Translations under genes and position numbers: made by a program
The notes under the pieces: generated by a model
The model's input: only the letters and a program-made list of their open reading frames with translations
Told to the model about the DNA's origin: nothing
The model's database searches: none
Source of the DNA: Minisyncoccota bacterium
Lineage (GTDB): Bacteria > Patescibacteriota > Patescibacteriia > Patescibacteriales > UBA12465
Direction: 5' to 3'
NCBI GenBank assembly: GCA_021734405.1
Contig: JAIPJA010000003.1
Location: forward strand, 1 to 58,454
Length of the DNA stretch: 58,454 nt
Part shown: positions 14,950 to 48,054 of the stretch, in pieces
Layout of the letters: each line of letters starts with the position of its first letter
Position numbering within the stretch: position 1 is the stretch's first letter

Positions 14950-14953
14950 AAAA

Positions 14954-16035: not shown

Positions 16036-16188
16036 CTACTGTTTAATTTTATAGGTTTTTCTATCTTTATATTCTGAAGCCTTACCTTTATTATAGTTCT
16101 TAGTTGGAGTTAACCAGCCAACTACCCGGCTATAGACAATACATTCTTGTCTATCAAGCTGTTTTGGACTCATATCTTTTATAGGCAT
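16036..16188 (-). CDS. stand-alone 50-aa glycyl-radical segment of class III RNR (detached NrdD C-terminus)
   Basis: Hand translation: MPIKDMSPKQLDRQECIVYSRVVGWLTPTKNYNKGKASEYKDRKTYKIKQ*. SRVVGW...NKGK..E..DR matches the NrdD C-terminal glycyl-radical signature, which is missing from the 690-aa NrdD ORF. Confidence 0.7.
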   Translation of the reverse strand: MPIKDMSPKQLDRQECIVYSRVVGWLTPTKNYNKGKASEYKDRKTYKIKQ

Positions 16189-16237
16189 AAGCTGATATAT
16201 AAAAGCTCAGTGGCCTTATATTAATTATTAATAAATC

Positions 16238-18310: not shown

Positions 18311-18317
18311 GGGGTAG

Positions 18318-25836: not shown

Positions 25837-25845
25837 AAAAATAAA

Positions 25846-26655
25846 TTATTTAAATAAAGTTATATAAAAAAAACGAAACAATCTAAGCAAATAAAGACTT
25901 AAAAGTCCATAATATTTTTTAAAATAATAATCTTGCGACTGATAATAATACTTTTTTCTTAGCTTATCTTTATTTTTAAGACTCAAGCCTCTCTGATGTA
26001 TTACAGACAAGCTAAGCGGGCAAACTGCTAATATATATCCTAATTTTCTTAATTTCTTAGCTAAATCAATATCCTCAAAATACATAAAAAAGTTTTTATC
26101 AAAACCTTCAACCGAAAAAAAAGCTGACTTTTTAATAATTAAAGCTGCTCCGCTAAGCCAATCCACTTCTGTTATTAATTTAGAATTCAAATCATTTTCA
26201 CTGATATTCTTTTTACCGCGTTGAAAAAAAATACTAAATAAATTAGGAAAATCTCCAAAAAACCTAGGCTCTAATTTTCCTTTTTCATCCTTTATTACTG
26301 GAGAAAGAGCAACTAAGTTTAAACTTTCCTTAACCTTAAATATCTCCTCTACCTTAGTTAAGATGTTTTCAGTTAAATAAGCATCGCTGTTTAAGAAAAA
26401 TAAATACTTACCTCTAGCCAGGGAAGCGCCTTGGTTACAAGCTTTAGAAAAACCAAGATTAGAAGAGTTAAAAACAAAATTAACTTGATTATAAAAATTA
26501 TGTTTTAGCATGTTTTGACTTCCATCTTGAGAGTTATTATCAATAACAATTACCTCTATTTGATCACTAGAGCAAAACTTTACAACTGAAAGCAAGCATC
26601 TTCTAAGCGCTTCTTTAGTGTTATAATTTACAATAATAAAAGAAAAGGTTGTCAT
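25846..26655 (-). CDS. family-2 glycosyltransferase
   Basis: FSFIIVNYNTKE...VIVIDNNSQDGS...LNSDA, typical of GT2/GT-A enzymes. Confidence 0.8.
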   Translation of the reverse strand: MTTFSFIIVNYNTKEALRRCLLSVVKFCSSDQIEVIVIDNNSQDGSQNMLKHNFYNQVNFVFNSSNLGFSKACNQGASLARGKYLFFLNSDAYLTENILTKVEEIFKVKESLNLVALSPVIKDEKGKLEPRFFGDFPNLFSIFFQRGKKNISENDLNSKLITEVDWLSGAALIIKKSAFFSVEGFDKNFFMYFEDIDLAKKLRKLGYILAVCPLSLSVIHQRGLSLKNKDKLRKKYYYQSQDYYFKKYYGLLSLYLLRLFRFFYITLFK

Positions 26656-26658
26656 AAA

Positions 26659-32367: not shown

Positions 32368-32398
32368 AAAAAAATACCGCTCACCAGCGGTATTTTTT
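32368..32398. terminator. bidirectional intrinsic terminator between clpP and the surface-protein block
   Basis: A-run, TACCGCT-CACC-AGCGGTA, then T6. Confidence 0.8.
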
Positions 32399-32459: not shown

Positions 32460-33623
32460 TTATTCTAACCAAAAAGAATCAGCGCAATAGGAAAAAACAT
32501 TAGGATAAGCTGGTTGCATAGCTAAGCTCACGTAAGAAATAATATATATTCTTTGCTGTATGTTGTCAGTTAAATAGATATATAAGCCATCTGGAGAAAA
32601 TACTAATTCTCTACTTTCATCAGAGTAATATTGATTTACTGGTAGCTCCTCTAGCTCAAATTCTTTTTCATACCAAGCTTTTATATCCAGACCTTCTACA
32701 TTAGGTTCAACTGATATCTGAAAAAATCCTTCATTAGTTGGGTCAATAAACATAACTGAGCTCTTATCTTCTGTCTCCTGAACTTCAAAGGCTTCAGGGT
32801 ACAACATTGAATAATTATAAACTTCATTACTATAATCTGCTAAATTATAAGCATTTAAAACTTTAGCTACAGAATCTAAACTTCCCTCCCCTAGAGGATT
32901 ATAAAGGTTAGAAAACTCCACAAAATCACTATAGCTATCACCATCAGTATCTACATTTTCACTATCTGTATTTAAAATTGCTTCTTCTAAATCAGTCAGT
33001 CCATCACCATCTAAATCACTAACTACTATAATTGGAGTGCTGGTTGGAACTTCATCTACAGGCTCGGTGCTAGTAGGCGATTCTATATCATTGTCAGTGC
33101 TAGTGGCTAAATCACCAGGTTCAGGGGAAATATCTGTGCTAGTAGGAGCTTCAAGCTCTTCAAGAATAACTTCCTCTTCAACTTCTATTTCTTCTTCAGG
33201 TGTTACATCTTCCAGCTCTTTATTATCAGAAACAATTTCCTTATTATTTTGCTCTATTGGTTTATTTTCTCTAACTATATTTTGACTATCTTGATTACTA
33301 TTATCAGAGTTAAAAACGTAAGCATAAACAAAATAACCTAAAACTGCTAAGACTAAAACTCCCACGGAAATTATAATCAAGCCCACTTTTTTATGAGAGC
33401 CGCCACCAGAAGAAGTCTTAGAACCACCAGAGTCTAAGTCATTGGGGTGCACAGAACTATTAAACTGACCTGACCTAAAACCACTAGGCATACTATGAAT
33501 TTTAAAGCCAGACTCTATATTCTCTGATAATTTTTGCATTGACTTCTCTTTTTCCAAACTAGAAATCTGTCCAATTTTAACTTTCTCTAAATTATTATCA
33601 GTTTGTAAATCTTTTTCCTCCAT
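32460..33623 (-). CDS. TM-anchored protein with an acidic linker, TSP3-like Ca-binding repeats and a C-terminal globular domain
   Basis: TM helix VGLIIISVGVLVLAVLGYFVYAYVF. Repeats DLDGDGLTDLEE and DTDGDSYSDFVE fit DxDxDGxxDxxE. Confidence 0.8.
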   Translation of the reverse strand: MEEKDLQTDNNLEKVKIGQISSLEKEKSMQKLSENIESGFKIHSMPSGFRSGQFNSSVHPNDLDSGGSKTSSGGGSHKKVGLIIISVGVLVLAVLGYFVYAYVFNSDNSNQDSQNIVRENKPIEQNNKEIVSDNKELEDVTPEEEIEVEEEVILEELEAPTSTDISPEPGDLATSTDNDIESPTSTEPVDEVPTSTPIIVVSDLDGDGLTDLEEAILNTDSENVDTDGDSYSDFVEFSNLYNPLGEGSLDSVAKVLNAYNLADYSNEVYNYSMLYPEAFEVQETEDKSSVMFIDPTNEGFFQISVEPNVEGLDIKAWYEKEFELEELPVNQYYSDESRELVFSPDGLYIYLTDNIQQRIYIISYVSLAMQPAYPNVFSYCADSFWLE

Positions 33624-33636
33624 AAATTATTATTAA

Positions 33637-34389
33637 TTAAAGCAAACCATCCCCTAAAGGATTATAACCATTTTTTACTTCTTCACCATCTAAGTAGCTA
33701 TCGCCATCTGAATCATCATTTAAAGGATCAGTGTTATATATATTTACTTCATCACCATCATTTAACCCATCACCGTCAGTGTCAGGGTTATTAGGGTTGG
33801 TATTGTATAAGCCTAACTCCTGAGCAGTAGAAAGACCGTCACTATCAGGATCTTGATTAGCAAACTCTGGTTCCGGTTCTTCTATTGGCGCTTCCGGCTC
33901 TATTACTACTGGCTCTTCATCTTCTATCTCTGGAACTTCTGGCTCTTCTTCGACTATAACTTCTTCAGGCTCTTCCTCTTCTACTTCTATACTTGGCTCT
34001 ATGTCATTATTGTTATCTTCTTCTAAATCTGGATTTTTATTCTCTAAGTTATTGTTAGCAACTTGACCAGCAGGATTATTTTCTACAACTTCATCAGCTT
34101 TTAATAGATTGTTATACATATAATAAACACCAAAACCAAGCACGGCTACTATCACCACAATAATAACTCCCATTCTTAGCTTTTTAGCTCCAGAACTTAC
34201 AGGTTCCCTGTAAGGGCGATATTTATCAGTAGAAAAAGAATTTTCCTTACTTTTCATTCTCTCTAATTGTTCTTTAGGTATACTTGGAGGAATGGGTTGA
34301 CCACTATCTTCAAACTTATCAGTTTCTTGAAAGATATCCTCTGTATTATTACCTCCTTCTTGAGATTTTTTCTCTAAATCATCAAACAT
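33637..34389 (-). CDS. TM-anchored protein with an E/P-rich linker and C-terminal TSP3-like Ca-binding repeats
   Basis: TM helix MGVIIVVIVAVLGFGVYYMY. Repeats DPDSDGLSTAQE, DTDGDGLNDGDE and DSDGDSYLDGEE. Confidence 0.8.
   Translation of the reverse strand: MFDDLEKKSQEGGNNTEDIFQETDKFEDSGQPIPPSIPKEQLERMKSKENSFSTDKYRPYREPVSSGAKKLRMGVIIVVIVAVLGFGVYYMYNNLLKADEVVENNPAGQVANNNLENKNPDLEEDNNNDIEPSIEVEEEEPEEVIVEEEPEVPEIEDEEPVVIEPEAPIEEPEPEFANQDPDSDGLSTAQELGLYNTNPNNPDTDGDGLNDGDEVNIYNTDPLNDDSDGDSYLDGEEVKNGYNPLGDGLL
33767..33809. repeat. DNA-level repeat copy A (encodes YNTNPNNPDTDGDG)
   Basis: CCATCACCGTCAGTGTCAGGGTTATTAGGGTTGGTATTGTATA is roughly 85% identical to 34524-34566. Confidence 0.7.
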
Positions 34390-34474
34390 AAAATACTATT
34401 TAATAATTATTGCTTATTATATCATTTAATTTACAGCTTAACAAAAAACATCTAAAAAATTAAAATGAATTAAT

Positions 34475-35314
34475 TTAACTTAAAGGGTCATAACCATTTT
34501 CTACCTCTTCTCCGTCTAAATAGCCATCACCATCAGTGTCAGGATTGTTAGGATTAGTATTATATATTTCATTTTCTTCCTTGTCGGTCAAGCCATCGCC
34601 ATCGGAGTCTAAATTTTCATTATCATTTATAAATATACCTATAGCTGAATTGCATTCTTGTTGCATTTCACCAGAAATAGATGAACAATCTTTATTTTTA
34701 ACCGCTAAATCAAAAATAATACTAGAAACACATTGATCTTTTGCTTTTCCTGATAGCGCATCACAAACAACTATATCTTCATAATCATTTTCATCAACAA
34801 AATATCCTATACAACTAGCTAAATAATATTCACTTTTTATATTTTGACACTGAGACAGTTCACCTAAGCTAATAGCCTTAAGTCTTATAACCTTATCTTT
34901 ACATTCTGAAACCCTATCCCTGCCAACAACATTATCACAAATTTCTTCATTTTCTGTATCCCTAGCAATTCTCTCTAAGCATAAGTCGGCACTAAAACTA
35001 TCCTCCATTTGCTGACAATAACTAATATCTTGTGTATCTTTAGCCTGATCATATAAATTATTTATTTTTTCAATCTTAAGTTGCTTTTCACTTTTTTCTG
35101 GTTGCGTATTGTCTTTTTGTATATCTGTGCTAGAAGCTGTATTTTCTTGTTTTTCTGATTCTTTTGAAACATCTTCACCTGATATATCATTATTACTTAC
35201 AGAAGAATTGACATCTTTATTATTGGAAAAAATGTTTTTATTAAAAATAAAAAACAAAGTCAAAGCTACTATAATTAATACAATAGAAATTAAAATGATT
35301 CTTTTTTTGTTCAT
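34475..35314 (-). CDS. N-terminally anchored protein with a paired-Cys helical region and C-terminal TSP3-like repeats
   Basis: Signal anchor RIILISIVLIIVALTLFFIF. Repeats DSDGDGLTDKEE and DTDGDGYLDGEE. Confidence 0.8.
   Translation of the reverse strand: MNKKRIILISIVLIIVALTLFFIFNKNIFSNNKDVNSSVSNNDISGEDVSKESEKQENTASSTDIQKDNTQPEKSEKQLKIEKINNLYDQAKDTQDISYCQQMEDSFSADLCLERIARDTENEEICDNVVGRDRVSECKDKVIRLKAISLGELSQCQNIKSEYYLASCIGYFVDENDYEDIVVCDALSGKAKDQCVSSIIFDLAVKNKDCSSISGEMQQECNSAIGIFINDNENLDSDGDGLTDKEENEIYNTNPNNPDTDGDGYLDGEEVENGYDPLS
34524..34566. repeat. DNA-level repeat copy B (encodes YNTNPNNPDTDGDG)
   Basis: CCATCACCATCAGTGTCAGGATTGTTAGGATTAGTATTATATA matches 33767-33809. Confidence 0.7.
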
Positions 35315-35324
35315 ATATAAATTA

Positions 35325-38300
35325 TTATTCTGCTTGACAACTTTCTAAAATTTGCATTCTTAAATTAGAAAAATTTATAGTCCCATTACCATTAGTAAAA
35401 CTAGCTGTAAAAGGCACGTAACTTGGAGAGCATTGCGCGCTTTCCGGATCACAAGAAACATTATTTAAAAATATTTGTTGATTTAAATAGTTAGACTCAC
35501 CTTCTTCTAATAAAATAGGATCTAACAACTCTCCATTTATCTCTATTTCCAACTCATTATCTGACGGCTCCCTAGATATATCTTCAACTATATTATCATA
35601 AGCACTGGAAACCCCTGTAGTTGATAAAAATGTATAATTAGCGCCAACGCAACCGCTTGTAATATCGCAACCAGCACAATCATACGGAATATCATCATTA
35701 GACCAAAAACACATCCTCTGTAACAAATTATTTTTAGGGTCGTCAGAAAAATAAATAGAATATACAAAAGCTTCATCGTTTATGTAACTAGTGCTTGTGC
35801 GAATAGTATTTTTTACATAAGCCCAAGGATCATCCCCAGTAGGATTGCCATCACTTAATAATATATAAAATTTAAAGGGATCATCATTTTCAGCACTTAA
35901 CATCTCATGAGCAGCCATTAAAGCATTTTTAGTTTCAGTTGCACTTCCTATATCATCATAAAACGATATAATGTTTACTAAATTAGAATAATCGCCATTA
36001 TTATGCAAGTCTATTATATCATCAGAATTTACAACATCACCAAAATCAACCAGGCCCACCCTTATATTGTTACTTTCATCAGCTATTTGCTTTAAATCAT
36101 GCATTACACTACCAGGTAATGCTTCATTCACATCAACATCTGTAGTTCCTATTAAAGATTGTCTCACATCATCTATACGTTCATTCATACTTCCCGAAAC
36201 ATCAGTAATAAAAACAATAGAAGTAGGCTCTATCGTCAACTCAACCTCAGTTAAGATATCAATAAAAACTGAGTCTGGTTTAAAGCTAACTGCCTCAGGC
36301 ATAGAAATATAAGCGGTCTCCCCTGGCCCGCCTTGCCATGCTAAAGTAATATTTTCTTGATAATCTAATGAACCTTCTTGAGTAGTAAAATAAACAGGAG
36401 TGGTAGTTTCAGGATATTGAAAATCCCACTTACAAAAATTACAACAATTATTATTTACCCCAAAATCACATTCTTCCATGTAGTCATCTTGTAACAAAGA
36501 ATCTCCGCACATACCACCGGTATACGTACAAGTTCCTGCTTGTACAGGCTTAGAGGTAGAACTATTAGTAGTGCAAGCATAAGGCTTTTTTTCTTCATAA
36601 CTAACCTGGGGGTCACAACCTCCATCACAAGCAGTCTCAGCAAGTCCATCGCATTCCTCATAGCCATCACCAAAAGGTCCGCCAGCCAACTCTCCGTTAG
36701 GAAAATTAAAATAACCATCTCCGCAAAAAGAATTAGCCCTAAATTCAAAAGAACTCTCGCTAGAAACTCCTGAAGTATTTATAGCCTCAACAGTTATTTT
36801 AAACTTTGCATAATCATCCAAACTACTTACTTGATAATTTGGTGGCTCTCCAAAATGAGTATTATAATCTAAAAATCCAGACAAAAAACTGCTAGAAGAA
36901 TTGAAATTAAAATTAAGTGGTAAATTTTTTGGCGGATTTAACGTATAAGGCACATAGTTAGTTCCGCTTAAATATTCTGTACTAAAAGCTATATCAGCAA
37001 CTTCCTCAGGATCTTCTAAGGTTATAAAACACTCAAACTTTTCCTCTCCAGCCCTAATCTCATCAGGACAATTAAAATTAAAAATTGGGTTACCATTTAT
37101 AATATTTATTAAAAAAGTCTTGTTAGCAGAGTTACCTGATGCGTCTTCAACATTTAAAGTAAAAGATATAGTATCTGGCTCAGGATCACTTAAGGCAGCT
37201 TGTACGTCCGCACTATCCAACAAACCATTAATATTTAAACGATATTGGTTACTGGCCACATAAACCATTCCAACTGTTAGCCCATTCCCTATGTTTAGAT
37301 CGCCAACACTAGCATTACCAATGTTTGGAGTAAACCCTGTCGGATAATTGACAATTAAATTCCAATTATTTGTATTAGTTAAATTATTAAAATTATTATC
37401 AAATAAATAAACATTATAATCTAAGGGTGTAACTCCGTCATAATAATAATCAATATTTTGAGCTTGTATTTGTGGAGATTCATCTCCTATAGTAATAGTT
37501 AAGGTTTCTTCTAAATCATCAGTTGAAGGCAGATTATCAGCAACTGAAAAATTAAAAATATATTGTCCTACTGCACCAGCTTTAGGGTTTTGAATAAGTC
37601 TTTTATTGGGATTATTAGTAGGAACTAGTTTTAAAATTGGATCTGGGTCAGGATCTGTCCAGCCCTCATTAGTAAAATCAGTTTCCGTTAAATTAATATT
37701 CCAATTTGATAAAATCCTGCCATCTGGATTATTAATTTCTATAACGCCATTAAAGGGTAACTGGCTTTGTCCGTTTAAATTATATGACTTTATAGTTATT
37801 GGATCTTTAACAAAACTTAAACCATAACCAACCATGCCCTCGCAATTAGCATTACTAATAGATATACCTTCTGTGTCATCAAATTCAAACTTACTTGCTG
37901 TTTCTAAGGTTGCGCAAAGATTATATTCAGAACCATAATTTTCACTACGATAAGCGTAAACAAAACTGTTTAAAGGTAAGTTGATTTCATTACTTAAATC
38001 ATTATCATAAAATTTTAATTTTTCTTCGTCCCAACAAGTATCCAGATTATAATTATAGACTCCAGTTTCATCAATGCAGGGCCCAAAAATATTAATAGGA
38101 TCTATCATTTTAGAACTAAACCCTAAAGCAGAGCCTAAAACATTATTCCAGCTAGGCCAAGTAGAAAAAGTGGTATTTTGTATATAACTACCAGCCGATA
38201 AAACTGGATAAACTCCAAATTGATTTTTGTATCTTTCCAAATAAGCAGTAAAGTCTGTTAATCTACCTACCCTAATAACGTCTCTGGTAATTCTAGCTTT

Positions 38301-38903
38301 AACACTTGAACAGAAAAAGCCTTTAGTGCAATCTGAGTCTATTAAACAATTTTTAGTATTAGGTAAATTAGCATCACTCTCTTCTATTACACATTTATTA
38401 TTTTGAAACTCTAAACCAACAACTCCTTCGTTGCCACAAACAAAACCCGCGGGACAATCAGAATCCTCACGACAAACGAGAGTGGATAAGGAGCATTTAC
38501 CTGGGTCATTATTAATATTATAATTAAACTTCCAATGAGAAATTATTTGCCCTAAAACATCCATAGTAGAATTATTTGATTCTTGGTTATAGGAAATTAA
38601 ATAAATATTAGTGTAAATAATATCTTTACTAGGGTCAAGTTTGTCTAGTATGTTAGCTGCTGCCACATAAACTGTTCTTCCATCTCTTATAGCTTCATAT
38701 CCGTCCACAATTAAGCTCTGAGGTGAACCAGAAAAGCCCTGCATTCTATACCAAGTTTCAATGCCATAGTGATTGGGGTTAGGCAAAACCCTAATAGCAA
38801 TAGCATCGGAGACTAAACTGTCTTCAGCTGAAGAAAAATTAAAAGCAAAAAATATAAGCAAAAAACTTAAAAGCAAAATTAATTTATTAAAATTAGTTTT
38901 CAT
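35325..38903 (-). CDS. giant secreted multidomain protein (1192 aa): Cys knots, pilin-head-like motif, Ig/cadherin-like repeats, CGDG...ECD cysteine-rich repeats, vWA-MIDAS domain
   Basis: Signal peptide ending ...FNFSSA. ARITRDVIRVGRLTDFTAYLERYKNQFGVYP at aa 203-233. FCGDGYF...YEECDG and MCGDSLLQDDYMEECD. vWA motifs IVFITDVSGSM ... GSATET ... LLSDG. Confidence 0.85.
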   Translation of the reverse strand: MKTNFNKLILLLSFLLIFFAFNFSSAEDSLVSDAIAIRVLPNPNHYGIETWYRMQGFSGSPQSLIVDGYEAIRDGRTVYVAAANILDKLDPSKDIIYTNIYLISYNQESNNSTMDVLGQIISHWKFNYNINNDPGKCSLSTLVCREDSDCPAGFVCGNEGVVGLEFQNNKCVIEESDANLPNTKNCLIDSDCTKGFFCSSVKARITRDVIRVGRLTDFTAYLERYKNQFGVYPVLSAGSYIQNTTFSTWPSWNNVLGSALGFSSKMIDPINIFGPCIDETGVYNYNLDTCWDEEKLKFYDNDLSNEINLPLNSFVYAYRSENYGSEYNLCATLETASKFEFDDTEGISISNANCEGMVGYGLSFVKDPITIKSYNLNGQSQLPFNGVIEINNPDGRILSNWNINLTETDFTNEGWTDPDPDPILKLVPTNNPNKRLIQNPKAGAVGQYIFNFSVADNLPSTDDLEETLTITIGDESPQIQAQNIDYYYDGVTPLDYNVYLFDNNFNNLTNTNNWNLIVNYPTGFTPNIGNASVGDLNIGNGLTVGMVYVASNQYRLNINGLLDSADVQAALSDPEPDTISFTLNVEDASGNSANKTFLINIINGNPIFNFNCPDEIRAGEEKFECFITLEDPEEVADIAFSTEYLSGTNYVPYTLNPPKNLPLNFNFNSSSSFLSGFLDYNTHFGEPPNYQVSSLDDYAKFKITVEAINTSGVSSESSFEFRANSFCGDGYFNFPNGELAGGPFGDGYEECDGLAETACDGGCDPQVSYEEKKPYACTTNSSTSKPVQAGTCTYTGGMCGDSLLQDDYMEECDFGVNNNCCNFCKWDFQYPETTTPVYFTTQEGSLDYQENITLAWQGGPGETAYISMPEAVSFKPDSVFIDILTEVELTIEPTSIVFITDVSGSMNERIDDVRQSLIGTTDVDVNEALPGSVMHDLKQIADESNNIRVGLVDFGDVVNSDDIIDLHNNGDYSNLVNIISFYDDIGSATETKNALMAAHEMLSAENDDPFKFYILLSDGNPTGDDPWAYVKNTIRTSTSYINDEAFVYSIYFSDDPKNNLLQRMCFWSNDDIPYDCAGCDITSGCVGANYTFLSTTGVSSAYDNIVEDISREPSDNELEIEINGELLDPILLEEGESNYLNQQIFLNNVSCDPESAQCSPSYVPFTASFTNGNGTINFSNLRMQILESCQAE

Positions 38904-38958
38904 TTTTTTAAATTATAGATTTAATAATCTAAACATATTATATCATCTAAGCATTAAG

Positions 38959-39666
38959 TTATAAAGCTTGATCATTTATCTGACAAGCTCCATACTGACA
39001 ACTTTCATTACAATACTTTTTACCTAATAAATTACCTTCATTACAATATATAAAACTATCAACTTTAGCGTTTGGATCACACTTTTCATTACCGTTTACA
39101 AGACCATCTCCGCAAGACTCTATCGGCAAACAATCAATTTCCCAACCATAACAATCATTTAAACAAGATTTTACTCCTTTATAAGCTCCACTAAAACAAA
39201 GCTGATAGCCACCATCGCACACCTCTAATTCTGCTTGTTCCCATAAACCGTTACCACAAGTTCCTGCCAAATCAGGGTCTAAATTAATCACCAATTCTTC
39301 ACTATAATTACTTTCATTTCCATAAGCGTCAACAGCGCTTAAAACAAAATAATGTATATAACTATTAAAATTAGTGGTAGATAGAGCTAAGCTGGTAACT
39401 TTACCATTAGTTTTTATACTTTCCCCGTATACACCAGAATTAACTCCATGATAAAGAGTATAATAAGAGACGTCATCTATAACCTCATCCCACTTAAAAA
39501 TAATTTCATCTCCCATGGCAGCTAATACTGCCTGTAAAGATAAATTTTTAAATCCAGAATTAACTAAATTATCTCTATTTACGTTATTATGTTTAAATAA
39601 AAAAATACTTGCAGAAACTAAAAATATAATAGCTATAGTAAAAATAAATAAAAAACTTTTTTTCAT
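38959..39666 (-). CDS. secreted or anchored FN3-like domain plus CGxG...C(D) cysteine-rich repeat protein
   Basis: N-terminal hydrophobic anchor, an FN3-like beta segment (KWDEV...YYTLYHG...SAVDAYGNES), then CGNGLWEQAELEVCDGG and CGDGLVNGNEKCDPN. Confidence 0.8.
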   Translation of the reverse strand: MKKSFLFIFTIAIIFLVSASIFLFKHNNVNRDNLVNSGFKNLSLQAVLAAMGDEIIFKWDEVIDDVSYYTLYHGVNSGVYGESIKTNGKVTSLALSTTNFNSYIHYFVLSAVDAYGNESNYSEELVINLDPDLAGTCGNGLWEQAELEVCDGGYQLCFSGAYKGVKSCLNDCYGWEIDCLPIESCGDGLVNGNEKCDPNAKVDSFIYCNEGNLLGKKYCNESCQYGACQINDQAL

Positions 39667-39673
39667 ATATAGA

Positions 39674-42600
39674 CTAATAAATAATTACACCAAGAGGAGT
39701 AGCTGGAGCGGTAGCGTCACTAGGCTCGCCAATAAGTTGATTAGAAAGCTGGCTTTCTACATTATTTTCATTAACAGATGAAATTCTAAAATAATAAGGA
39801 TTATTATTTTGTAAATCATGCAAAACTCTTTGACAATGATAATTGCCGCCAATAGTTATACAAGCTACTGGGTTAGGCACAATATCAGGATCTAAAGGAT
39901 CGCTTGGATAAACTTCAAAATTAGAAAAATTACTATCTTGAGCTTTTCTATAATACACTTTATATCTATTAGCCATATTTACTGGGGATTGCCAATATAG
40001 TTTTAAACTACCACCAGTTTCTAAATCTTCTACTTGAGCAAATTGAACTTGTGATGGTTTTTCAGCTCTAAAAAAATAATAATCTTTCAAAACTCCAGGG
40101 ACACAAGTGTTGTTGCTAAAATCTCCAAGACAATCTGCTGGAGCTTCACAATAATTACCAGTAATACTACAAGTATTTGCTTGACAGGTGTTGCTAACTG
40201 GGCAAGCAGGAGGCCCACAATATTCTCCAGTTATACTACAAATATTACTCAAGCCTCTTATTCTTACGTCTTCCAAATCTTCAGATAAAGCTGGTAAGTC
40301 ATCAAAAGTTCCTGGCTCTCCAGCGTCACGACAATAATATAGTGTATAATTAAAATTTTTACAGAAATCAGGATCATTATTAAAATCACAATTAACATCA
40401 GCATCAGACCAAGGCATCCAAGCATGAGTTATTGGATTAGGTGAAGGCCAAGGGTTTTGGCAAGCAAAAACATACAACGGTACTGTGTGTGACATATCAT
40501 CAGATGGTATAACATTATTAATTTCATCAAAATCTATAGTAGCAGTAATTTTAGTGTTACCTTCTTGTAAATCAAGTGTCACCTTAACTAAACGACTGTT
40601 ATCAGGACAATTATTAGGCTGACTTATATTAGCAATATTTATATCCTCTACAGACCAATCCCAACTCCAGTCATAGACATTAGCGATAGGTTGTAACACT
40701 TGACCACTAATACTATAAGCATTTACATTGTAAGACTTATCTCTGTCATAAAAATTATCATAAGTATCTGAATTAAAATCATTATCATCCTCAAAAATGT
40801 TATCTTGAGTATTTTGGAATAAATAATCATCTGGCCTTACTCTAATATAATTAACTTCACATAAACCATCATTATTACCCTGTTCAGATAAAGTTTTAAA
40901 TGTCCAAATATATGAATTAACAAAAGTAGTGCTATTAAACATAATATCTCCACCTGGTATATAATCATTGGTAAGTGGATCCTCTAAATAACCTTCACCA
41001 TTTAAACCAATTCCTTCAACGCTTAAAACTCCGCTAGAACTATTTAAATCCTTGTCACCTTTAACTATTCCATAATACACAGCATTAGAAGCCAAAACAT
41101 TGTTGGGTATAAAAACTAAGACTGAATTTCCATTATCAATTTTTCTAGAAACACTTCCTGGCACCTGACAATAAATATAATTTTCAGGCTGAGGGATTGG
41201 ATGAGCTGAAAAAGCTGTGTCTGTTTTTCTTAAACCTAAAGAGCTTAAAGTTGAATTAAAAATTCTAGCAACAGGTCTAGTAATTTTTTGCCACCATTTT
41301 TCTTTATAATTATAATCCAAGTTAACTAAAAAAGTTCCTGAAGGACAAACCTTATTTTGGTCCAACTCTTGCAATAAGATAAAGTTATTAAAGAAACTAC
41401 TCGCCTTCATGTTTTGATTAAAGGGAACTTCTAATACAGCATTTCTACAAACATTTGACTCGCCATGACTTGGCTTAACTTGATCTTCCACAACTTGAGG
41501 TCTAGCATGACAACAAGTATCAAGGCCACAACCAATATTACTACTATCACCACACTCACTATCATTACTACAACCACAACAAAGACCTCTATTTTCAGTA
41601 GTGCAATTACCTTTGTTAGCTACACAATTCAAGTTATCTCCTATATTCTTACAAACATCATCTTCTGGGTCAGCTTTAGGATCGCAACAACAAACACCGC
41701 AATCACCACCAACCACAGCCTGAGCTAAATCGCCCCTATTATCTAAGCAATTGAAAGGGTTAGAGCAAAGACTAAGATCACAAGCGCCACTATAGTCATC
41801 TACACAAGCATTACCAAAACCACCTGGTGGTCCACTGCCTTCACAATTATCATTACAGTCTGTCCAAGTTTCATACTCTCCAGAAGTTAAAGGATTGGAA
41901 GGATTAGTGCAAGCTCCAGTTACATCATTACAATCATAGTAATCACAATAACCCAAATTAGGCTCTGAAGTAATTCTAGCGCCAGCTGAGCAACTAGCAT
42001 CATTCTCGTCCCAGCAACAACTCCCATCATCTATACACTCATTCTCATCGCCATAAGTTGAACACTGACCACAAGCTTCTTCACAAGTTTCAAAAGTTCT
42101 ATAATCACCAGTTTCCTCAGGTCCAGAGCATGATCCTGACGCGTCATCACAATCATAATAAGAACAATATCCATTTGAATCTACTCCACTTCCTCCTCTG
42201 CAAATATCTTCTGCTTTATCCCAACAACAAGTAGTTTCATGTTCTGTACAACTATCTTCAGATAATTTAGCACAATCTAAACAAGCGCCATTCGGATAAG
42301 GAGGATTAGTAATATCACAATATTTTCCAGAAGTATTTAAACAATTACAGGCAGCGTCTCTTACATTAGGATCATTAGAAATATTACAACCTGAACAAAC
42401 ACCAAAACCTTCATCATCAGTAGCGTCATCATCAGAGCCACAAGTGCCAGTGCAATCTAAGGTATCACAACAGTCTTGACCTTGTAGTTCTACACGACAA
42501 CAACAATCACAAGAAGCATTATCTTCATATATACACTTATCCTCTGCGCCGTTATTAGTACAACTAGAACCAGAAGGACAAAGTTTATCTGATAAACAAA

Positions 42601-45178
42601 TACCTTGTCCGCCTCCATCATCAAAACAATTAAAATTTACACTGCATAGCTCACAAGTGCTGTTCTCATCTACACAAATTCCATTACCTTTATTAGTCCA
42701 ACCATCAGGACAAGAAGTATTAACTTGCATTTGCCAGTGACCATTATTATTACAAACCCTGTCTGCATAAAAAGTCTGCACAGGGTTAGGAGCTTCTCCT
42801 AAAGTATAGGCTACATTTGTTTGTGGCAAATCACAGACTCCTCCATTTTGTTGACACTTATCTTTATCAACTAAATATGTGCAATTTTCTCCACAACCTA
42901 AAACATCAGAACAATCAAGATTACAATCTCCTACAATCTGCTGTTCTCCGCCTTCATAAGGAGAACATTGCCCTGGAGCATTAGGACAGAAAGTTGATTC
43001 CTGGCAAGCGCCTAAAGCTCTGGCCATACCTAAACAACTGTCATAAGTATTAATGTTTTCCCAAACAGTATTAAAATTCCATTGAAAAACTGAACTAGGA
43101 ATATCAGAAAAACAATTTTCATACATATCATTAGCTGGTCCCTCCTCTACGCAACGCCCACTTTCTGAAGAACTAGAAGGACAACAAACATCAGCTCCGC
43201 AATCAGCATTTTTTTCACATTCTCCTACCTCAAAATTTAAACTATTGCCAGTCTCGTTATTAGTTAAATTTTCTACTTTTACTGGACCACTAACTACCTC
43301 TGGATCAGTGTCAGGGACAATAGTACTTAATTTTTGAGCATCAATCTCAGTTTCTATTTCTGCTTGATTAGAATTAGTAGTATTGCCAGAAGCTGTAAAA
43401 ATAATTTCTGCATTCTCCCCAGTAGTGCCAAAATACTCACCCCACAGAGACACTGAACTATTGTGAGGGCCTAATTTAGGACTAATTTTACATAAACTTG
43501 GTTTTAAATTTAGATCATTATCAACCTCAAACTGTTGTGAGCTTTGAATTTCCCAGGAACCAATTTCCATGTTTATATATTCAAAGCCATCTACAACATT
43601 ATTTGGCACTTTAACTATCACCATATTATCACTCCAAACTGAATCAGCGCATACATCAGGAAAATCATAGCTAGCTTCAATATCGCCAAAATAAACACTA
43701 CTAGATCCTTGGCTATTACCAAAACCTGAACCATAAATAGTAACATACTGACCAACCGGACCCTCAGTATCAAAAAAACTAGAAATATATGGACCTAAGT
43801 CTTCTTCTGTTTCTTTGACAAAATCTAAAAAATTACTTTTTACATCTATGCCGGCAAAAACTTTAGTAGCAAAAGAACTAGTTTCCCCATTAGAAATATT
43901 AGGGAGATCGGTGCTACCGACCTTACCGTCGGGATCTATAAATACATTATTAAAACCTGAAACATTGGTATTATAATTACCAAAATAAGCTCTAGCGTTA
44001 TTTAAATTTAAACCAGAATAATTTATAGTCGCTAAAGCTTGAGCACTGTCAGGAGTTAAACTACAAAGACCTGGTCTAGTAATAGTGTTTTTAACAAAAT
44101 CTTCTATAACAGGACCCAAGGTATTATTAGTGTTATCGCTTTTACCGTCTTCATTTGTGACTGTAATTACTCCTGAATTAGCAAATTCAGGTACAGCTAC
44201 TATTATAAGGTTATTGTTAGAAACTCCAGCACAGTCTGCGTTTAAACTAGCCGGATCAACACCGTCAACTCCTCCATTAAACGTTACAGTAGAACTGGAA
44301 AAGTTGTGTCCATGAATACTAATTAAATTAGAGGTGGCTCCATTAGGAGTAATATCATCGCAAACACCACTCTCACAATCAATGCCTGTTTTACAAGGCG
44401 TATTTTCATCATCTTTACAAAAGCCCCCAAAAGGACTAATAGCGGTTATAACCGGTGAACCCTGGCAAGTACAATCAGCGTCAGCATCACAAGTTAAATA
44501 CTCTCCACACATATTATCACTAGCATCACAAACATCTGGTGTACTTAAATCACCATCACAAGGATCGCCAATGTTGCCGGTCTGCTCACAAAAACAATCG
44601 GTATTACAGAAATAGTTAGGAGCACAATATGTATCATCTTGGTCACAGACAGGAGTTAAAGAGTTGCCATCACAACTAGTAACTGGAGTGGTGCAATTTG
44701 AAGGATTAGTAATATCCCAAGTACAGTCATCCTGGCAGGTTTTTTCACCACCACAACCAAAGGTCTGTGTAGTTCCTTCGATACAGCAAGTAGTGGTCGT
44801 AGTTCCTACCCCCGTAGCATTTAAAAGTTGATTTATAACAAAAGTGGCTATTCCCCAAGAAGCTAAAATAATAGCTAAACCAATAACGGCGTTTATAAGT
44901 ATCCTTTTAGCTTTTCTAACATTTTCCTCATCACCATCAGCAGTCATCCATCTAAAACCAGCATAAATAATTAAAACGACTGCTAAAAGCCCTAGAATTG
45001 ACATTAAAATGTTAATAACTCTAGCAGCTACTTCTCTTGGATCATCATCACCTAAAGCAATATTATTACTAACATAATTAGTACCCACATCTAAAGCTAA
45101 AACACTGTTAGTGGCAAAGCCTAAGATTAAAACTGAAAAAAGTATTATAAGGAAAATAGTAAATCTTTTTTTAAACAC
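39674..45178 (-). CDS. giant surface protein (1834 aa): VirB2/TrbC-like two-TM pilin module fused to IPT/TIG repeats, a hyper-Cys-rich core, an Ig-like region and a C-terminal FN3
   Basis: Signal peptide ending ...NSVLA, two TM helices flanking WMTADGDEENVRKAKR, and about 120 Cys by my count. IPT-like segments at aa 240-650 and FN3 at aa 1705-1820. Confidence 0.9.
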   Translation of the reverse strand: MFKKRFTIFLIILFSVLILGFATNSVLALDVGTNYVSNNIALGDDDPREVAARVINILMSILGLLAVVLIIYAGFRWMTADGDEENVRKAKRILINAVIGLAIILASWGIATFVINQLLNATGVGTTTTTCCIEGTTQTFGCGGEKTCQDDCTWDITNPSNCTTPVTSCDGNSLTPVCDQDDTYCAPNYFCNTDCFCEQTGNIGDPCDGDLSTPDVCDASDNMCGEYLTCDADADCTCQGSPVITAISPFGGFCKDDENTPCKTGIDCESGVCDDITPNGATSNLISIHGHNFSSSTVTFNGGVDGVDPASLNADCAGVSNNNLIIVAVPEFANSGVITVTNEDGKSDNTNNTLGPVIEDFVKNTITRPGLCSLTPDSAQALATINYSGLNLNNARAYFGNYNTNVSGFNNVFIDPDGKVGSTDLPNISNGETSSFATKVFAGIDVKSNFLDFVKETEEDLGPYISSFFDTEGPVGQYVTIYGSGFGNSQGSSSVYFGDIEASYDFPDVCADSVWSDNMVIVKVPNNVVDGFEYINMEIGSWEIQSSQQFEVDNDLNLKPSLCKISPKLGPHNSSVSLWGEYFGTTGENAEIIFTASGNTTNSNQAEIETEIDAQKLSTIVPDTDPEVVSGPVKVENLTNNETGNSLNFEVGECEKNADCGADVCCPSSSSESGRCVEEGPANDMYENCFSDIPSSVFQWNFNTVWENINTYDSCLGMARALGACQESTFCPNAPGQCSPYEGGEQQIVGDCNLDCSDVLGCGENCTYLVDKDKCQQNGGVCDLPQTNVAYTLGEAPNPVQTFYADRVCNNNGHWQMQVNTSCPDGWTNKGNGICVDENSTCELCSVNFNCFDDGGGQGICLSDKLCPSGSSCTNNGAEDKCIYEDNASCDCCCRVELQGQDCCDTLDCTGTCGSDDDATDDEGFGVCSGCNISNDPNVRDAACNCLNTSGKYCDITNPPYPNGACLDCAKLSEDSCTEHETTCCWDKAEDICRGGSGVDSNGYCSYYDCDDASGSCSGPEETGDYRTFETCEEACGQCSTYGDENECIDDGSCCWDENDASCSAGARITSEPNLGYCDYYDCNDVTGACTNPSNPLTSGEYETWTDCNDNCEGSGPPGGFGNACVDDYSGACDLSLCSNPFNCLDNRGDLAQAVVGGDCGVCCCDPKADPEDDVCKNIGDNLNCVANKGNCTTENRGLCCGCSNDSECGDSSNIGCGLDTCCHARPQVVEDQVKPSHGESNVCRNAVLEVPFNQNMKASSFFNNFILLQELDQNKVCPSGTFLVNLDYNYKEKWWQKITRPVARIFNSTLSSLGLRKTDTAFSAHPIPQPENYIYCQVPGSVSRKIDNGNSVLVFIPNNVLASNAVYYGIVKGDKDLNSSSGVLSVEGIGLNGEGYLEDPLTNDYIPGGDIMFNSTTFVNSYIWTFKTLSEQGNNDGLCEVNYIRVRPDDYLFQNTQDNIFEDDNDFNSDTYDNFYDRDKSYNVNAYSISGQVLQPIANVYDWSWDWSVEDINIANISQPNNCPDNSRLVKVTLDLQEGNTKITATIDFDEINNVIPSDDMSHTVPLYVFACQNPWPSPNPITHAWMPWSDADVNCDFNNDPDFCKNFNYTLYYCRDAGEPGTFDDLPALSEDLEDVRIRGLSNICSITGEYCGPPACPVSNTCQANTCSITGNYCEAPADCLGDFSNNTCVPGVLKDYYFFRAEKPSQVQFAQVEDLETGGSLKLYWQSPVNMANRYKVYYRKAQDSNFSNFEVYPSDPLDPDIVPNPVACITIGGNYHCQRVLHDLQNNNPYYFRISSVNENNVESQLSNQLIGEPSDATAPATPLGVIIY
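41840..42259 (-). repeat. tandem duplication of a 65-75-aa CCWD cysteine module inside the 1834-aa protein
   Basis: Copy 1 is aa 974-1038: C..H/ETTCCWDKAEDIC...GYCSYYDCDDASGSC...ETCEEAC. Copy 2 is aa 1039-1113: C...GSCCWDENDASC...GYCDYYDCNDVTGAC...TDCNDNC. Confidence 0.75.
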
Positions 45179-45227
45179 AAGCGTATGGTTAAATATTTTA
45201 AATTTTTATTTTTATCTTACTAAACAA

Positions 45228-47873
45228 TTAATTACAAGTAGCACTATTGGTAGGAACATTATTACAACAAGTAGGAAGACCACTAGTAGCTTCACAGCCT
45301 AGACTAGCGCTAGGTTTGTAACAATTTTGATAAATATTTTTAACTCCAGAACCGGCTTCAGCTGTATGAGCCATAGAATCAGCAAATAAAGAATGGTTGA
45401 TATATACATGCGTCTGGTCAACTCCATCTAAAGGTGTGTCAGTATCTATATCCTCAGCATTTATCCAATAACCTAAAGGATAAGGAGCTGAACCCCAAAG
45501 ATTAACTCTTCTGTGAGTAAAGCTATCATTACCTGACTGTATAATTGTGCTACCTGTTTTTAAAGTACTTTTCATCATTAAACTATCAAATTCTATCTTA
45601 ACTGGAGAAGCTAAATTAACATTATCGCCATTTACATCAGGCTCAATTAAATTAATTATTGGTGGTTCTAAAGCAATATAGTCACTGATATAAAAAGACC
45701 AAGTAAAGCTATCACCTTTACTAACATCTTCTGGGGTATTTTCTGAGTAATAACTAACAGGACCCTCAGCCTTGTTATTTCTGTTACCATCAAAAGAATT
45801 AAAAGCTAAATCAACTATGCCAGAACTAACATCAATGGGTGCAGCTGGATAATTTTCTAAAGCATCATTTTGACAAACACTAACAGCCGGACTACAAGTT
45901 AAATAAGGATCTAAACCTGAACAATCATCATCAATAGCACAAGAATTTAAAATCGCCGCTGTAATTTTTACCTTTAAGTTAGACTTGGCAGGCAGACAAT
46001 AAATAGTTTCTCCACAGCCATTAACTCCACAAATATTATCAGAGACAAATTCTAAAGTAGAAAATTGATTAGAAAGCACAAATTTACCAGCTAATTCATT
46101 GCCAACACATTCTCCCCCGTCGCTACAATTATAGGAAAGACACTCTTTATCTTCTGTACAAGCTTCTTCATCCACCTTATCACCTTCAGCACTAATAATT
46201 TTAACTGTATTAGCTACATCTTCAGCCCTGCCTGATACCATGGCTGGGTTTATAGGTTCATTAAAATTAACTTGTATAACTGAATTTCTAGGCTGATCTT
46301 TTGCATCATTTTTAATATAATTAATTTGGCTATTAGCTCCGCCTGTCATTGGGGTTAAAGAAATAGCACTACTGTTAGAAGTATTTAAAATAATATTATT
46401 TCCACCCGAACCAACTGAAGAAGCAGTTAATTCAACTGTATTGCCGTCAAGGGTAGCTATTATATTAGGGTTATTATTTAAAGCTTCTAAAATATTATCA
46501 GCTTGCTCATCATTGTCAGCGCCTTTTTCAATTTTAGTTGCCCCAGAACTATTAGCAAAAGAGTAAACAATATCTCCAACTCTCAAGGTGTCAGCAAAAA
46601 TTTCAAGATTTACAATCACTTCCCATAAATTACCGACCTCTGGATTAGCATCAAAAGTTAAAGAAAAATAATTAGGAAAATTAACAGTATTACCATTTAT
46701 ATTAGCAATGGTAATTAAAGTAGTAGTCCCCACGCCTTCAAATAACTGGGCTTTAGTGGGATTAAGTACAAAAACGGAAAATTCTTCAAGTTGCTGATGA
46801 TAATTAGGACTAATTGTAGCAGAATCAATATCTACATCACCAACTACAGTGGTAGTGCTAGCCATATTCATACTAGCAGGCACATATACCTTTAATTGGC
46901 TAAAGTCATTAACAGTAATTAAACCCTCAGCTGCCACAGCTGTAGAAGAAGCAACTTCATCTCTTAAATTATCAGCTCCAGGGAAAACTCCTCCTACCTC
47001 TACTTGAGGAGGCATTAAATCTAAAATAGTACCAACTTGAAAATCCCATTGTAAATAATCTGTACTACAAGTAGTAAATACCCCCTTGCCATCGCTTAAC
47101 TTATTAATATCATTAGTTAAATAAACCGTATACCAAATTTTTTCTGAACTAGAGCCTAATAAATTATCAGGTTTAAGAACAAAATCCATACCTGGACCAT
47201 CTAATGGATTAGCATCAATAATTTTTACATTTTCTAAACTTTGGTCAGGCTCACTGGACTTATATATCTTAATATTATCTGTATTAATATAATCTCCCTG
47301 ATTGCAATAAGTTGCGTCAGCATTACTATCAAGACACATATCCTCTAACATAACCGGCTCCTTAAAACTAACTAATATTGAAGTATTTCTAGGTACATCT
47401 TTTTGTCCAGGAGCGGGGTAAACAGATTCAACTGAACAAGCCCCTAAAGCTCCCAAGCCTAAATTAACATTATTGTTATTGTTGTTATTATTACTATTGC
47501 CAGCGCCAGTAGCGTCTAAAAGGCTGTTTAATATAAAGGTGGTTATACCAAAAGAAGCTAAAATTATTAAAAGCCCTATGACTCCATTAGTTAAAGTCTT
47601 TTTAGCTTTAGAAACTTTTTCTTCACTGCCACCACTGGTCATCCAAAGAAAACCAGCATAGAGAATGATAACTACTGCTATTAAGCCTAAAAGTCCCAAA
47701 GCTATTTGAATAATTCTGGCCACTACTACTCTAGGATCATTATTGCCTAATTCTAAATTATCATTTAACTGATTTAAACCAACATCTACAGCTAAGGTTG
47801 GATTAGGTAAAATAAAAAAAGCCAGGCCAAGAAAAACAAGAGATATTATAAAAATAAATAGTTTCTTTCTCAT
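45228..47873 (-). CDS. large surface protein (881 aa): paralogous VirB2/TrbC-like two-TM pilin module, poly-Asn linker, SbsA/Big_5-like Ig domains, Cys-rich C-terminal third
   Basis: The N-terminal 125 aa are about 60% identical to those of the 1834-aa protein. Ig-domain starts VYPAPGQKDVPRNTSILVSFKEPV and QPRNSVIQVNFNEPINP. Confidence 0.9.
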   Translation of the reverse strand: MRKKLFIFIISLVFLGLAFFILPNPTLAVDVGLNQLNDNLELGNNDPRVVVARIIQIALGLLGLIAVVIILYAGFLWMTSGGSEEKVSKAKKTLTNGVIGLLIILASFGITTFILNSLLDATGAGNSNNNNNNNNVNLGLGALGACSVESVYPAPGQKDVPRNTSILVSFKEPVMLEDMCLDSNADATYCNQGDYINTDNIKIYKSSEPDQSLENVKIIDANPLDGPGMDFVLKPDNLLGSSSEKIWYTVYLTNDINKLSDGKGVFTTCSTDYLQWDFQVGTILDLMPPQVEVGGVFPGADNLRDEVASSTAVAAEGLITVNDFSQLKVYVPASMNMASTTTVVGDVDIDSATISPNYHQQLEEFSVFVLNPTKAQLFEGVGTTTLITIANINGNTVNFPNYFSLTFDANPEVGNLWEVIVNLEIFADTLRVGDIVYSFANSSGATKIEKGADNDEQADNILEALNNNPNIIATLDGNTVELTASSVGSGGNNIILNTSNSSAISLTPMTGGANSQINYIKNDAKDQPRNSVIQVNFNEPINPAMVSGRAEDVANTVKIISAEGDKVDEEACTEDKECLSYNCSDGGECVGNELAGKFVLSNQFSTLEFVSDNICGVNGCGETIYCLPAKSNLKVKITAAILNSCAIDDDCSGLDPYLTCSPAVSVCQNDALENYPAAPIDVSSGIVDLAFNSFDGNRNNKAEGPVSYYSENTPEDVSKGDSFTWSFYISDYIALEPPIINLIEPDVNGDNVNLASPVKIEFDSLMMKSTLKTGSTIIQSGNDSFTHRRVNLWGSAPYPLGYWINAEDIDTDTPLDGVDQTHVYINHSLFADSMAHTAEAGSGVKNIYQNCYKPSASLGCEATSGLPTCCNNVPTNSATCN

Positions 47874-47953: not shown

Positions 47954-48054
47954 AAACTAAATAAGCTTTATTTTATAAAAATATAATTATATAATTAATT
48001 ATAGCATAAAAAGAAGCTAAGCCAAATACTTTATTGGTATTTAATAAAGCTAAT

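Follow-up and report, generated by a model that had tools for sequence, protein, structure and literature searches.

The 58,454-nt stretch of contig JAIPJA010000003.1 (GCA_021734405.1) analysed here, called the window below, carries at positions 32460-47873 a 15.4-kb block of seven tightly packed minus-strand genes, g1 to g7. The block is, in our reading, a vertically inherited, operon-like cluster, most likely encoding a multi-protein cell-surface assembly for attachment, and this reading is held with about as much confidence as doubt; a fibre or adhesion role is what we infer for the proteins. The host is a Patescibacterium of the Falkowbacteria type, in line with the small-genome organism expected by the first-pass annotation, which had been made from the sequence and had presented the block as a candidate surface fibre or adhesion apparatus. 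Two of the proteins, g1 and g2, join a pilin-type helical hairpin to very large ectodomains, a third, g4, combines a conserved N-terminal domain (N-domain) with an exchangeable head, and the others are smaller membrane proteins.

The block is real and conserved, because among the 85 loci holding g1 over which synteny was counted relA adjoins g1 in 76, g2 is present in all 47 that offer at least 13 kb downstream of g1, the g4 N-domain is found in 39 of these 47, and g6-like, g7-like and clpP genes occur in each of the four loci reaching 16.5 kb, all of which end at clpP-secDF. The shared order begins with a divergent relA, continues with a pilin-Big_5 protein of ~890 amino acids (aa), a pilin-TIG protein of ~1,900 aa, (a small variable gene) and a g4-family protein, and passes through small transmembrane (TM) or TSP3 proteins and a protein of ~335-380 aa to a convergent clpP, secD, secF and a Wzy_C-TPR gene. 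An identical gene order is seen in contigs of 63-809 kb whose g4 homologues are just 33-38% identical. Loss of synteny in relatives had been named in advance as the finding that would speak against an apparatus; the block is kept as an operon-like unit, and the proposal is not refuted. Variants do exist, with eight loci having g2 without g4 and seven having g1 without g2; in those of the latter that were checked (L081, L028, and L047), recA lies directly after g1. The conserved unit has a core made up of g1, g2, a g7-like protein and a membrane protein with TSP3 repeats; g4 is a frequent member, and g3 and g5 are lineage-specific accessories, with full-length orthologues in only six close relatives. 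The seven-gene unit first described holds in this core and not in its accessories. The co-directionality of the block alone is not special, because 32 of the 38 window open reading frames (ORFs) of at least 150 aa lie on the minus strand; what sets the block apart from chance is its conservation in relatives. When species-representative genomes were scanned with the g1 alignment, at least 218 proved to encode a g1 relative, and the informative labels among them are Candidatus Falkowbacteria, Parcubacteria or Patescibacteria group. Many of the block-bearing records of metagenome-assembled genomes (L008, L011, L015, and others) are titled “uncultured Gammaproteobacteria bacterium”, which looks like systematic mislabelling.

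The proteins g1 and g2 each start with a signal peptide and two more hydrophobic helices by hydropathy, with segments at aa 1-31, 47-83, and 92-121, that is, a signal peptide and then a two-helix hairpin; in g1 the cleavage follows TLA. The hairpins score above the Pfam cut-off of T4SS_pilin (PF18895, 26.6 bits) in both proteins, and g2 has weaker second matches to TrbC (PF04956, E = 0.0019) and to the NCBIfam model of a pilin-like conjugal transfer protein (35.6 bits, cut-off 40). On the strength of these profile matches, both hairpins are assigned to the VirB2/TrbC class of type IV secretion pilins. The “pilin-like membrane modules” noticed earlier are thus retained for g1 and g2 as pilin hairpins, of a class that is neither that of type IV pilins nor that of sortase pilins. 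The module accounts for only the first ~125 aa of each protein, so neither is of small-pilin size, and similarity between g1 and g2 is restricted to these residues, which include the signal peptide; in the window no other protein carries the hairpin. Behind it follow ectodomains of ~760 residues in g1 and ~1,700 residues in g2, the latter arranged as a Cys-rich part, an IPT/TIG domain, a long Cys-rich region, a Big_5-like, a beta, and an FN3-like part. The stalk domains announced as IPT, Ig and FN3 were recovered in Pfam as IPT/TIG in g2 and Big_5 in g1, with the FN3 of g2 staying below the cut-off. The AlphaFold2 model of g1 (62-sequence alignment; mean pLDDT 84.8) has two helices (aa 47-78 and 84-122), which a disordered poly-Asn linker connects to an all-beta Ig-like chain; in Foldseek searches of the PDB it finds only generic multi-Ig proteins, with TM-scores near 0.1: the Chlamydomonas flagellar glycoprotein FMG1B, SbsC, MG domains of alpha-2-macroglobulin, a Nitrosopumilus S-layer protein, and cadherins. 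One g1 domain is matched by a CopC-like fold. Full-length g1 orthologues are present in 83 loci with a median identity of 41%, and the median is 39% for g2. Both are conserved across their entire length, with a peak at the hairpin (aa 51-100), where identity reaches 65% in g1, computed over 61 homologues, and 54% in g2; good conservation is also seen in the Cys-rich g1 C-terminus. When g1, g2, and g4 were compared with the PDB by sequence and by profile, no relatives were returned, just chance knottin, PKD or TIG fragments. This result, together with a literature search that found no paper describing the proteins, upholds the view that no well-characterised family explains them.

Apart from its cleavable signal peptide, the g4 protein contains no hydrophobic segment, and it has no anchor of its own. 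Its AlphaFold2 model (pLDDT 78) is divided into five regions: the well-predicted N-domain (aa 33-350), four Ig/cadherin-like domains (aa 357-724), a disordered Cys-rich linker (aa 727-829), the vWA domain, and a terminal beta-sandwich. In the PDB, Foldseek relates the model to cadherins, RTX-adhesin repeats, complement or MG proteins, and the Nitrosopumilus S-layer, and its vWA part to ITIH1 and TEM8 (TM-score 0.70 for TEM8). The N-domain has neither a Pfam nor a PDB match, and a comparison of the model with viral structures gave generic Ig and vWA matches and left the N-domain without a relative. It is nonetheless a widespread sequence, as its search (aa 28-355) against 1.84 billion cluster representatives retrieved 1,345 at E <= 0.001 and 1,195 at E <= 1e-10, with an identity of mostly 44-55% among the best 150 matches. 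The domain nearly always occupies aa ~30-340 in proteins of 320-2,100 aa. Conservation along g4 is 59-67% in the N-domain (aa 51-150) and 20-30% in the Ig repeats, and homology stops near aa 830. Beyond this point the relatives carry alternative C-terminal modules, which, according to a survey of their precomputed Pfam content, comprise VWA, Fib_succ_major (FISUMP), CarboxypepD_reg, Beta_helix, Dickkopf_N, PKD, and Listeria-Bacteroides repeats. Such a pattern is the signature of a putative docking or assembly domain, itself conserved, which bears exchangeable binding heads. In the window the head is a vWA domain (29.4 bits against a cut-off of 23.8) whose MIDAS motif (DxSxS...T...D) is intact, with DVSGS at aa 901, T near aa 990, and D at aa 1019, as it also is in 11 of 13 vWA-bearing orthologues. 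The earlier identification of a vWA-MIDAS domain is therefore correct for this protein and does not extend to the core of the system, since the vWA part of g4 was detected in only three of the 47 loci and is one rare option within the family. The N-domain segment at aa 200-250, with a helix followed by a G-x-YP motif, may resemble the head domains of type IV pilins.

The remaining proteins are smaller. Hydropathy gives g3 and g5, like g4, an N-terminal signal peptide or anchor, whereas g6 and g7 do not begin with a signal peptide and have a single TM helix after a hydrophilic N-terminus; the claim that every product starts with a signal peptide or anchor is in this way borne out for g1-g5 and replaced by an internal anchor for g6 and g7. 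The N-terminal tails of g6 and g7 are probably cytoplasmic. They contain the conserved motifs MFxDL...DIFxETD (g6) and I-H-x-M-P-x-x-F-R (g7), which suggests contact with an intracellular partner. Taken together, hydropathy and signal sequences support a predicted surface location of all seven products. Each of g5-g7 spans the membrane once and carries an acidic linker and TSP3 (DxDxDG) repeats. TSP3_bac (PF18884, cut-off 25) is matched by g5 with 49.7 bits and by g6 with 35.6 bits; g7 remains sub-threshold with 16.9 bits, but has DLDGDG. The expected Ca-binding DxDxDG repeats were found as five exact motifs distributed over these three proteins, two of them in g5 at aa 236 and 259. Orthologues of g6 are present in 26 loci, and every match in the homologue search with g7 is annotated as hypothetical. 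The g3 gene is, on present alignments, a lineage-specific accessory. Its aa ~50-130 match the extra C-terminal FN3 of longer g2 orthologues (1,937-2,005 aa; L005-L007, near 9566-9985), and lineages with these longer orthologues have no separate g3, which may be a split-off or duplicated g2 terminus. A duplication of the window’s own g2 C-terminus is unsupported (E = 0.19). In L003, the place of g3 is occupied by two FISUMP proteins.

The ORF scan reproduced exactly the seven consecutive minus-strand ORFs, with the lengths and positions first given for them (Table 1), and the intergenic gaps from g1 to g7 measure 49, 7, 55, 10, 85, and 13 nt. The layout is operon-like, with gaps of 7-85 nt and a strong terminator only at the block end. 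This terminator, claimed earlier as strong and bidirectional, is a real hairpin, in which an A-run, ATACCGCT, a CACC loop, AGCGGTAT, and a T-run follow each other and the stem comprises 8 GC-rich base pairs; its folding energy is -18.1 kcal/mol (z = -4.8), a stability reached by none of 200 shuffles. It escaped a simple terminator scan, the probable reason being that pairing between the A and T runs lengthens the stem. Inside the block, the scan of the coding strand found no terminator except one weak site in g1, and the total number of sites was below that of shuffles. Upstream of g1 there is a sigma-70-like promoter match, which is weak evidence for a g1 promoter: promoter-like matches in the region number 96 against 77 expected from shuffles, the sequence has 32% GC, and the match is to the consensus only. 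Cysteines across the seven proteins number 198, of which 123 are in g2, so that “hundreds of cysteines” was a generous wording. That the products have no enzymatic motif was confirmed, as no enzymatic family was returned for any of the seven by Pfam or NCBIfam, nor by Pfam at E <= 1 for nine sub-segments (including the N-domain, linker, and C-terminus of g4, the C-domain of g7, g3, and the C-terminal halves of g2 and g1), for which Big_5 was the sole family returned.

Table 1. Positions of the block genes, their principal domains and the associated signals in the window
Feature	Position	Strand	Description
g1	45228-47873	-	881 aa; signal peptide, VirB2-type helical hairpin, all-beta Ig-like (Big_5) chain, conserved Cys-rich C-terminus
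g1 VirB2/TrbC-type pilin hairpin, aa 47-122	47508-47735	-	PF18895, 35.8 bits
g2	39674-45178	-	1834 aa; GTG start; g1 paralogue
g2 VirB2/TrbC-type pilin hairpin, aa 47-119	44822-45040	-	PF18895, 53.1 bits
g3	38959-39666	-	235 aa; N-terminal anchor, FN3-like domain, CGDG...ECD Cys-rich repeats
g4	35325-38903	-	1192 aa; secreted, modular, vWA-MIDAS head
g4 conserved N-terminal domain, aa 28-355	37839-38822	-	two knottin-like Cys inserts
g4 vWA domain, aa 896-1064	35712-36218	-	PF00092 match, MIDAS intact
g5	34475-35314	-	279 aa; N-terminal anchor, Cys-containing helical region, two TSP3 Ca-binding repeats
g6	33637-34389	-	250 aa; single-pass, TM aa 66-96, acidic linker, TSP3 repeats
g7	32460-33623	-	387 aa; single-pass, TM aa 76-106, acidic linker, TSP3-like repeats, ~140-aa C-terminal domain
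Bidirectional intrinsic terminator	32368-32398	.	between convergent g7 and clpP stop codons
Sigma-70-like promoter match, TTGGCT-16-TGnTATAAT	47998-48025	-	125 nt upstream of g1, in the divergent relA/g1 spacer

It is proposed that the hairpins of g1 and g2 would lie in the membrane with both termini outside and the charged loop inside, and would hold the two proteins there, possibly as hetero-oligomers, so that their ectodomains could cross the cell wall as stalks. The g4 protein would dock via its N-domain onto this invariant g1/g2 scaffold and display a lineage-specific ligand-binding head. The TSP3 proteins would stabilise or cross-link the assembly through Ca2+, the tails of g6 and g7, if cytoplasmic, would link it to the cell interior, and the whole would mediate contact with a host cell or a surface. 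An attachment function is plausibly favoured by the adhesin-type modules, that is, the vWA-MIDAS, the cadherin-like and RTX-adhesin-like Ig repeats, and the TSP3 repeats. Several observations weigh against this proposal. In P0002 (52% identity) and P0003, the two relatives closest to g4, the MIDAS motif is degenerate. The docking step is weakened by the finding that g1 keeps its conserved C-terminus in lineages without g4 or g2. Moreover, g1 and g2 evolve like structural proteins, with ~40% identity over the full length and no hypervariable tip, and host-specific adhesins would be expected to be more variable. Signature residues of the pilin family are strongly conserved in the hairpin, which suggests that this part is more than a passive anchor.

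The structural-protein-like evolution of g1 and g2 also suits a housekeeping envelope scaffold or S-layer-like coat, in which the membrane-anchored g1 and g2 would build an outer layer with Ca2+-binding partners and would serve cell integrity and not host binding. Their full-length conservation, the fixed position beside secDF and the division genes ftsA and ftsZ, the strongly acidic and Asn-rich composition, and the presence of Big_5, an S-layer-type Ig domain, agree with such a coat, and so does the appearance of SbsC (E = 1e-6) and the Nitrosopumilus S-layer among the best Foldseek matches of g1, the latter being shared with g4. Luef et al. (2015) reportedly observed S-layers by cryo-electron microscopy on ultra-small groundwater bacteria. 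However, the TM-score with SbsC is 0.10-0.13, a value of generic multi-Ig likeness, the seven proteins showed neither an SLH domain nor any other domain for S-layer anchoring, the swapping of g4 heads is typical of binding proteins, and seven different proteins with heavy cysteine content would be unusual for an S-layer; we consider a coat unlikely. Far less credit is given to the view that there is no common apparatus and that seven unrelated surface proteins lie together by chance in a region where secretion and envelope genes abound. It can point to the general co-directionality of the window, to the narrow distribution of g3 and g5, and to the loci lacking g4 or g2, but it is very hard to reconcile with an order g1-g2-(g4)-TSP3 protein-g7 held at ~30-40% protein identity over dozens of species-level genomes and with a g4 family that was never met outside the block context among the loci examined.

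The conservation of the hairpin leads to the main rival explanation, a coupling to type IV secretion, which we regard as possible and on balance doubtful. It assumes that g1 and g2 are true VirB2-class subunits, which the Patescibacterial VirB4/PrgI machinery would extract from the membrane and place on an extracellular conduit as a decorated short pilus, tip or sheath, with the rest of the block as the host-contact end; they would then provide the pilin and the adhesin otherwise missing from Gram-positive-type systems. The PF18895 scores above the gathering cut-off, with the TrbC and conjugal-pilin models as weaker seconds, speak for this assignment. The explanation also gains from the hairpin being the best-conserved part of both proteins and, with the signal peptide, their only shared stretch, because such conservation would be surprising in a passive anchor. 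The literature describes VirB2-like pilins in Patescibacteria, in most cases encoded by arrays of small genes close to virB4, and essential in Southlakia (PMC12102498, PMC10633639, PMC12857230), where the type IV secretion system is essential for epibiotic growth; the surveys of such systems found VirB2-like pilins and no PrgB-type adhesin, which fits a role of the block as the absent part (PMC12102498, PMC10633639). The secretion locus of class ABY1 is located close to comF, recG, and radA, and giant hairpin fusions and a relA-clpP block are unmentioned in these three papers (PMC12102498, PMC10633639, PMC12857230). The genomic linkage tells for both sides. Protein scans found no virB4 in the 58-kb window, and the sole type IV secretion-type gene there encodes a TrwB/VirD4-like coupling-protein ATPase (13153-14949, minus strand; PF10412, TraG-D_C) with a treble-clef zinc finger, which counts in favour by its presence and against by its distance of 17 kb from the block. 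Among the 85 g1 loci, virB4 occurs in one, L080, in which (10001-17724) a full-length g1 orthologue directly precedes prgI (VirB3-like), a 228-aa gene, virB4, a 210-aa gene, and radA, these replacing g2-g7; this arrangement may reflect a single rearrangement event or a join introduced during assembly. The neighbourhoods of close relatives of the L080 VirB4 were compared in 80 metagenomic loci; the cassette prgI-228-virB4-210-(radA) is conserved and g1 is found in none, so that the idea of g1 as a routine virB4 neighbour, suggested by L080, was rejected and physical linkage of g1 and virB4 is exceptional. ORFs matching a g1-derived hairpin profile are present in only four of these 80 loci (L151, L166, L149, and L156), measuring 314, 315, and 465 aa, plus one of 149 aa that ends at a contig edge, and no VirB2 gene was detected in L131, the one core virB4 locus scanned with Pfam; this scarcity of hairpin genes beside virB4 counts in favour of the coupling. 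On the other hand, C-terminal fusions of 760-1,700 residues fit poorly into a homopolymeric VirB2 pilus, and g1 stands alone beside recA in several lineages. In L151 (12524-16705), the 315-aa hairpin ORF lies two genes upstream of a DsbA-like thioredoxin oxidoreductase, which hints at disulfide formation for Cys-rich ectodomains. The attachment assembly and the secretion link could also be combined. In this bolder proposal, which is speculative and to our mind improbable, the VirB2-type hairpin would have taken on a new use in Falkowbacteria/ABY1 Patescibacteria, as the module that assembles a novel host-contact organelle. The essential type IV secretion machinery would handle g1 and g2, giant Ig/Cys-rich adhesins, and these would bear polymorphic, head-swapping receptor-binding proteins of the g4 family, all with one docking domain in common. 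If this is true, the hairpin organelle would be the missing adhesin and pilus part of the Patescibacterial secretion system, with g4 heads that swap like phage receptor-binding proteins, and if the link to type IV secretion holds, it would change the view of how such monoderm secretion systems contact their targets.

The window is otherwise an ordinary Patescibacterium chromosome. On the lower-coordinate side, the block is neighboured by ftsZ, ftsA, a prepilin peptidase, a GT2 glycosyltransferase, a Wzy_C-TPR protein, secF, secD, and clpP, and on the higher-coordinate side by relA/spoT, hisS, lepB, queA, and ruvB. An origin from a mobile element or phage is ruled out by these core flanks (relA, hisS, lepB, clpP, secDF, ftsAZ) and by the same chromosomal position in relatives. 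Downstream of secDF (25081-28902, minus strand), the prepilin peptidase, the GT2 glycosyltransferase, and the Wzy_C-TPR protein, which has 747 aa and is O-antigen-ligase-like, lie together; the Wzy_C-TPR gene also follows secDF in L003-L007, accompanied by the prepilin peptidase in L003-L005. The set may act as a module that O-glycosylates pilins or surface proteins. A serine recombinase with Resolvase and Recombinase domains (783-1760, plus strand) is encoded where the coding strand changes, as it seldom does in the window, and may be the remnant or edge of a mobile element. Genes for the NrdG activase, the anaerobic ribonucleotide reductase NrdD, and NrdR (15253-18791, minus strand) are consistent with an anaerobic lifestyle, and a 177-aa leucine-rich-repeat protein (54621-55154, minus strand) adjoins an AddA/UvrD-type helicase-nuclease.

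All domain types in the block are already known, as are modular pilins (PMC8179133), Cys-rich surface proteins of the candidate phyla radiation (CPR; PMC4736985), and CPR pilin families (10.1101/335083). A literature search returned no description of VirB2-class hairpins fused to giant ectodomains, of the g4 N-domain family, or of a fixed relA-clpP block, and no cultivated representative of the lineage was found in it. Little is known about how ultra-small Patescibacteria recognise their hosts and stay attached to them, except in Saccharibacteria, where evidence points to type IV pili and to a type IV secretion system with small VirB2-like pilins. For the Falkowbacteria and their relatives, a large lineage without cultures, the block provides a concrete candidate for such an apparatus, and one that is conserved. 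Of wider interest are the VirB2-class hairpins with giant ectodomains and the conserved, unannotated N-domain of ~300 residues in g4, and head swapping in the g4 family could mark host or ligand specificity, which would permit the prediction of partners from metagenomes.

When the block is compared with known systems, partial likeness is found to several of them. With the S-layer proteins SbsC (4uic) and that of Nitrosopumilus (8c8m), which are among the top Foldseek matches, it shares Ig-like chains, acidic composition, and Big_5, but TM-scores are ~0.1, an S-layer anchoring module is absent from the block, and the hairpin anchor and the many cysteines are unlike an S-layer. Sortase pili (RrgA, EbpA, and GBS104) have in common with it the monoderm envelope, the Ig-like stalks, and a vWA-MIDAS adhesin; a sortase pilus was rejected, as there is no LPXTG-like motif near any C-terminus, no pilin motif, and no sortase among the window proteins scanned, and anchoring here is by TM helices. 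Modular type IV pilins and tip adhesins, such as the pilin-vWA protein PilB of S. sanguinis (PMC8179133) and PilY1/PilC, follow the same principle of a filament or membrane module combined with adhesive modules and a vWA-MIDAS binding head. They differ in pilin class, and a type IV pilus was likewise rejected, since no prepilin motif or class III signal peptide occurs in any window ORF of at least 40 aa, though a prepilin peptidase lies 7 kb away. Pfam scans gave no PilY1/PilC family match for the block proteins, and the vWA is located here on a separate secreted protein, g4, without a pilin module. The kinship with PilY1/PilC and Gram-positive tip pilins, which the first-pass annotation had evoked, is for these reasons reduced to an analogy. 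The same mixture of vWA, TSP3 repeats, and myxobacterial-type Cys-rich repeats is known from Myxococcus xanthus CglB (vWA), CglD (TSP3, Ca2+), and MtsD (PMC9946355), and NCBIfam gave sub-threshold matches to CglD, MtsD, Myxo_Cys_RPT, and myxo_disulf_rpt. The CglD and MtsD equivalog models (NF033765 and NF047639) score 14-27 bits against cut-offs of 400 and 800, however, with only the TSP3 repeats matching, and the Myxococcus proteins are motor-coupled outer-membrane lipoproteins of a diderm, whereas no motor genes lie at the block. Large Cys-rich extracellular proteins of Peregrinibacteria and other CPR bacteria (PMC4736985) are alike in size, signal peptide, ~7% Cys, clustering, a symbiotic CPR host, and a proposed role in attachment; the likeness is one of description, which is generic there, and a VirB2 hairpin, a docking domain, and a fixed synteny are unreported for them. 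The closest counterparts of the membrane modules are the VirB2/TrbC pilins, including the Patescibacterial arrays of Southlakia and TM7x (PMC10633639, PMC12102498), members of the same phylum. With these, g1 and g2 share the signal peptide, the two-helix hydrophobic hairpin with a short charged loop, and a score above the PF18895 cut-off, but the known pilins are small and arrayed next to virB4, whereas g1 and g2 are fused to ectodomains of 760 and 1,700 residues and stand at a relA-clpP locus.

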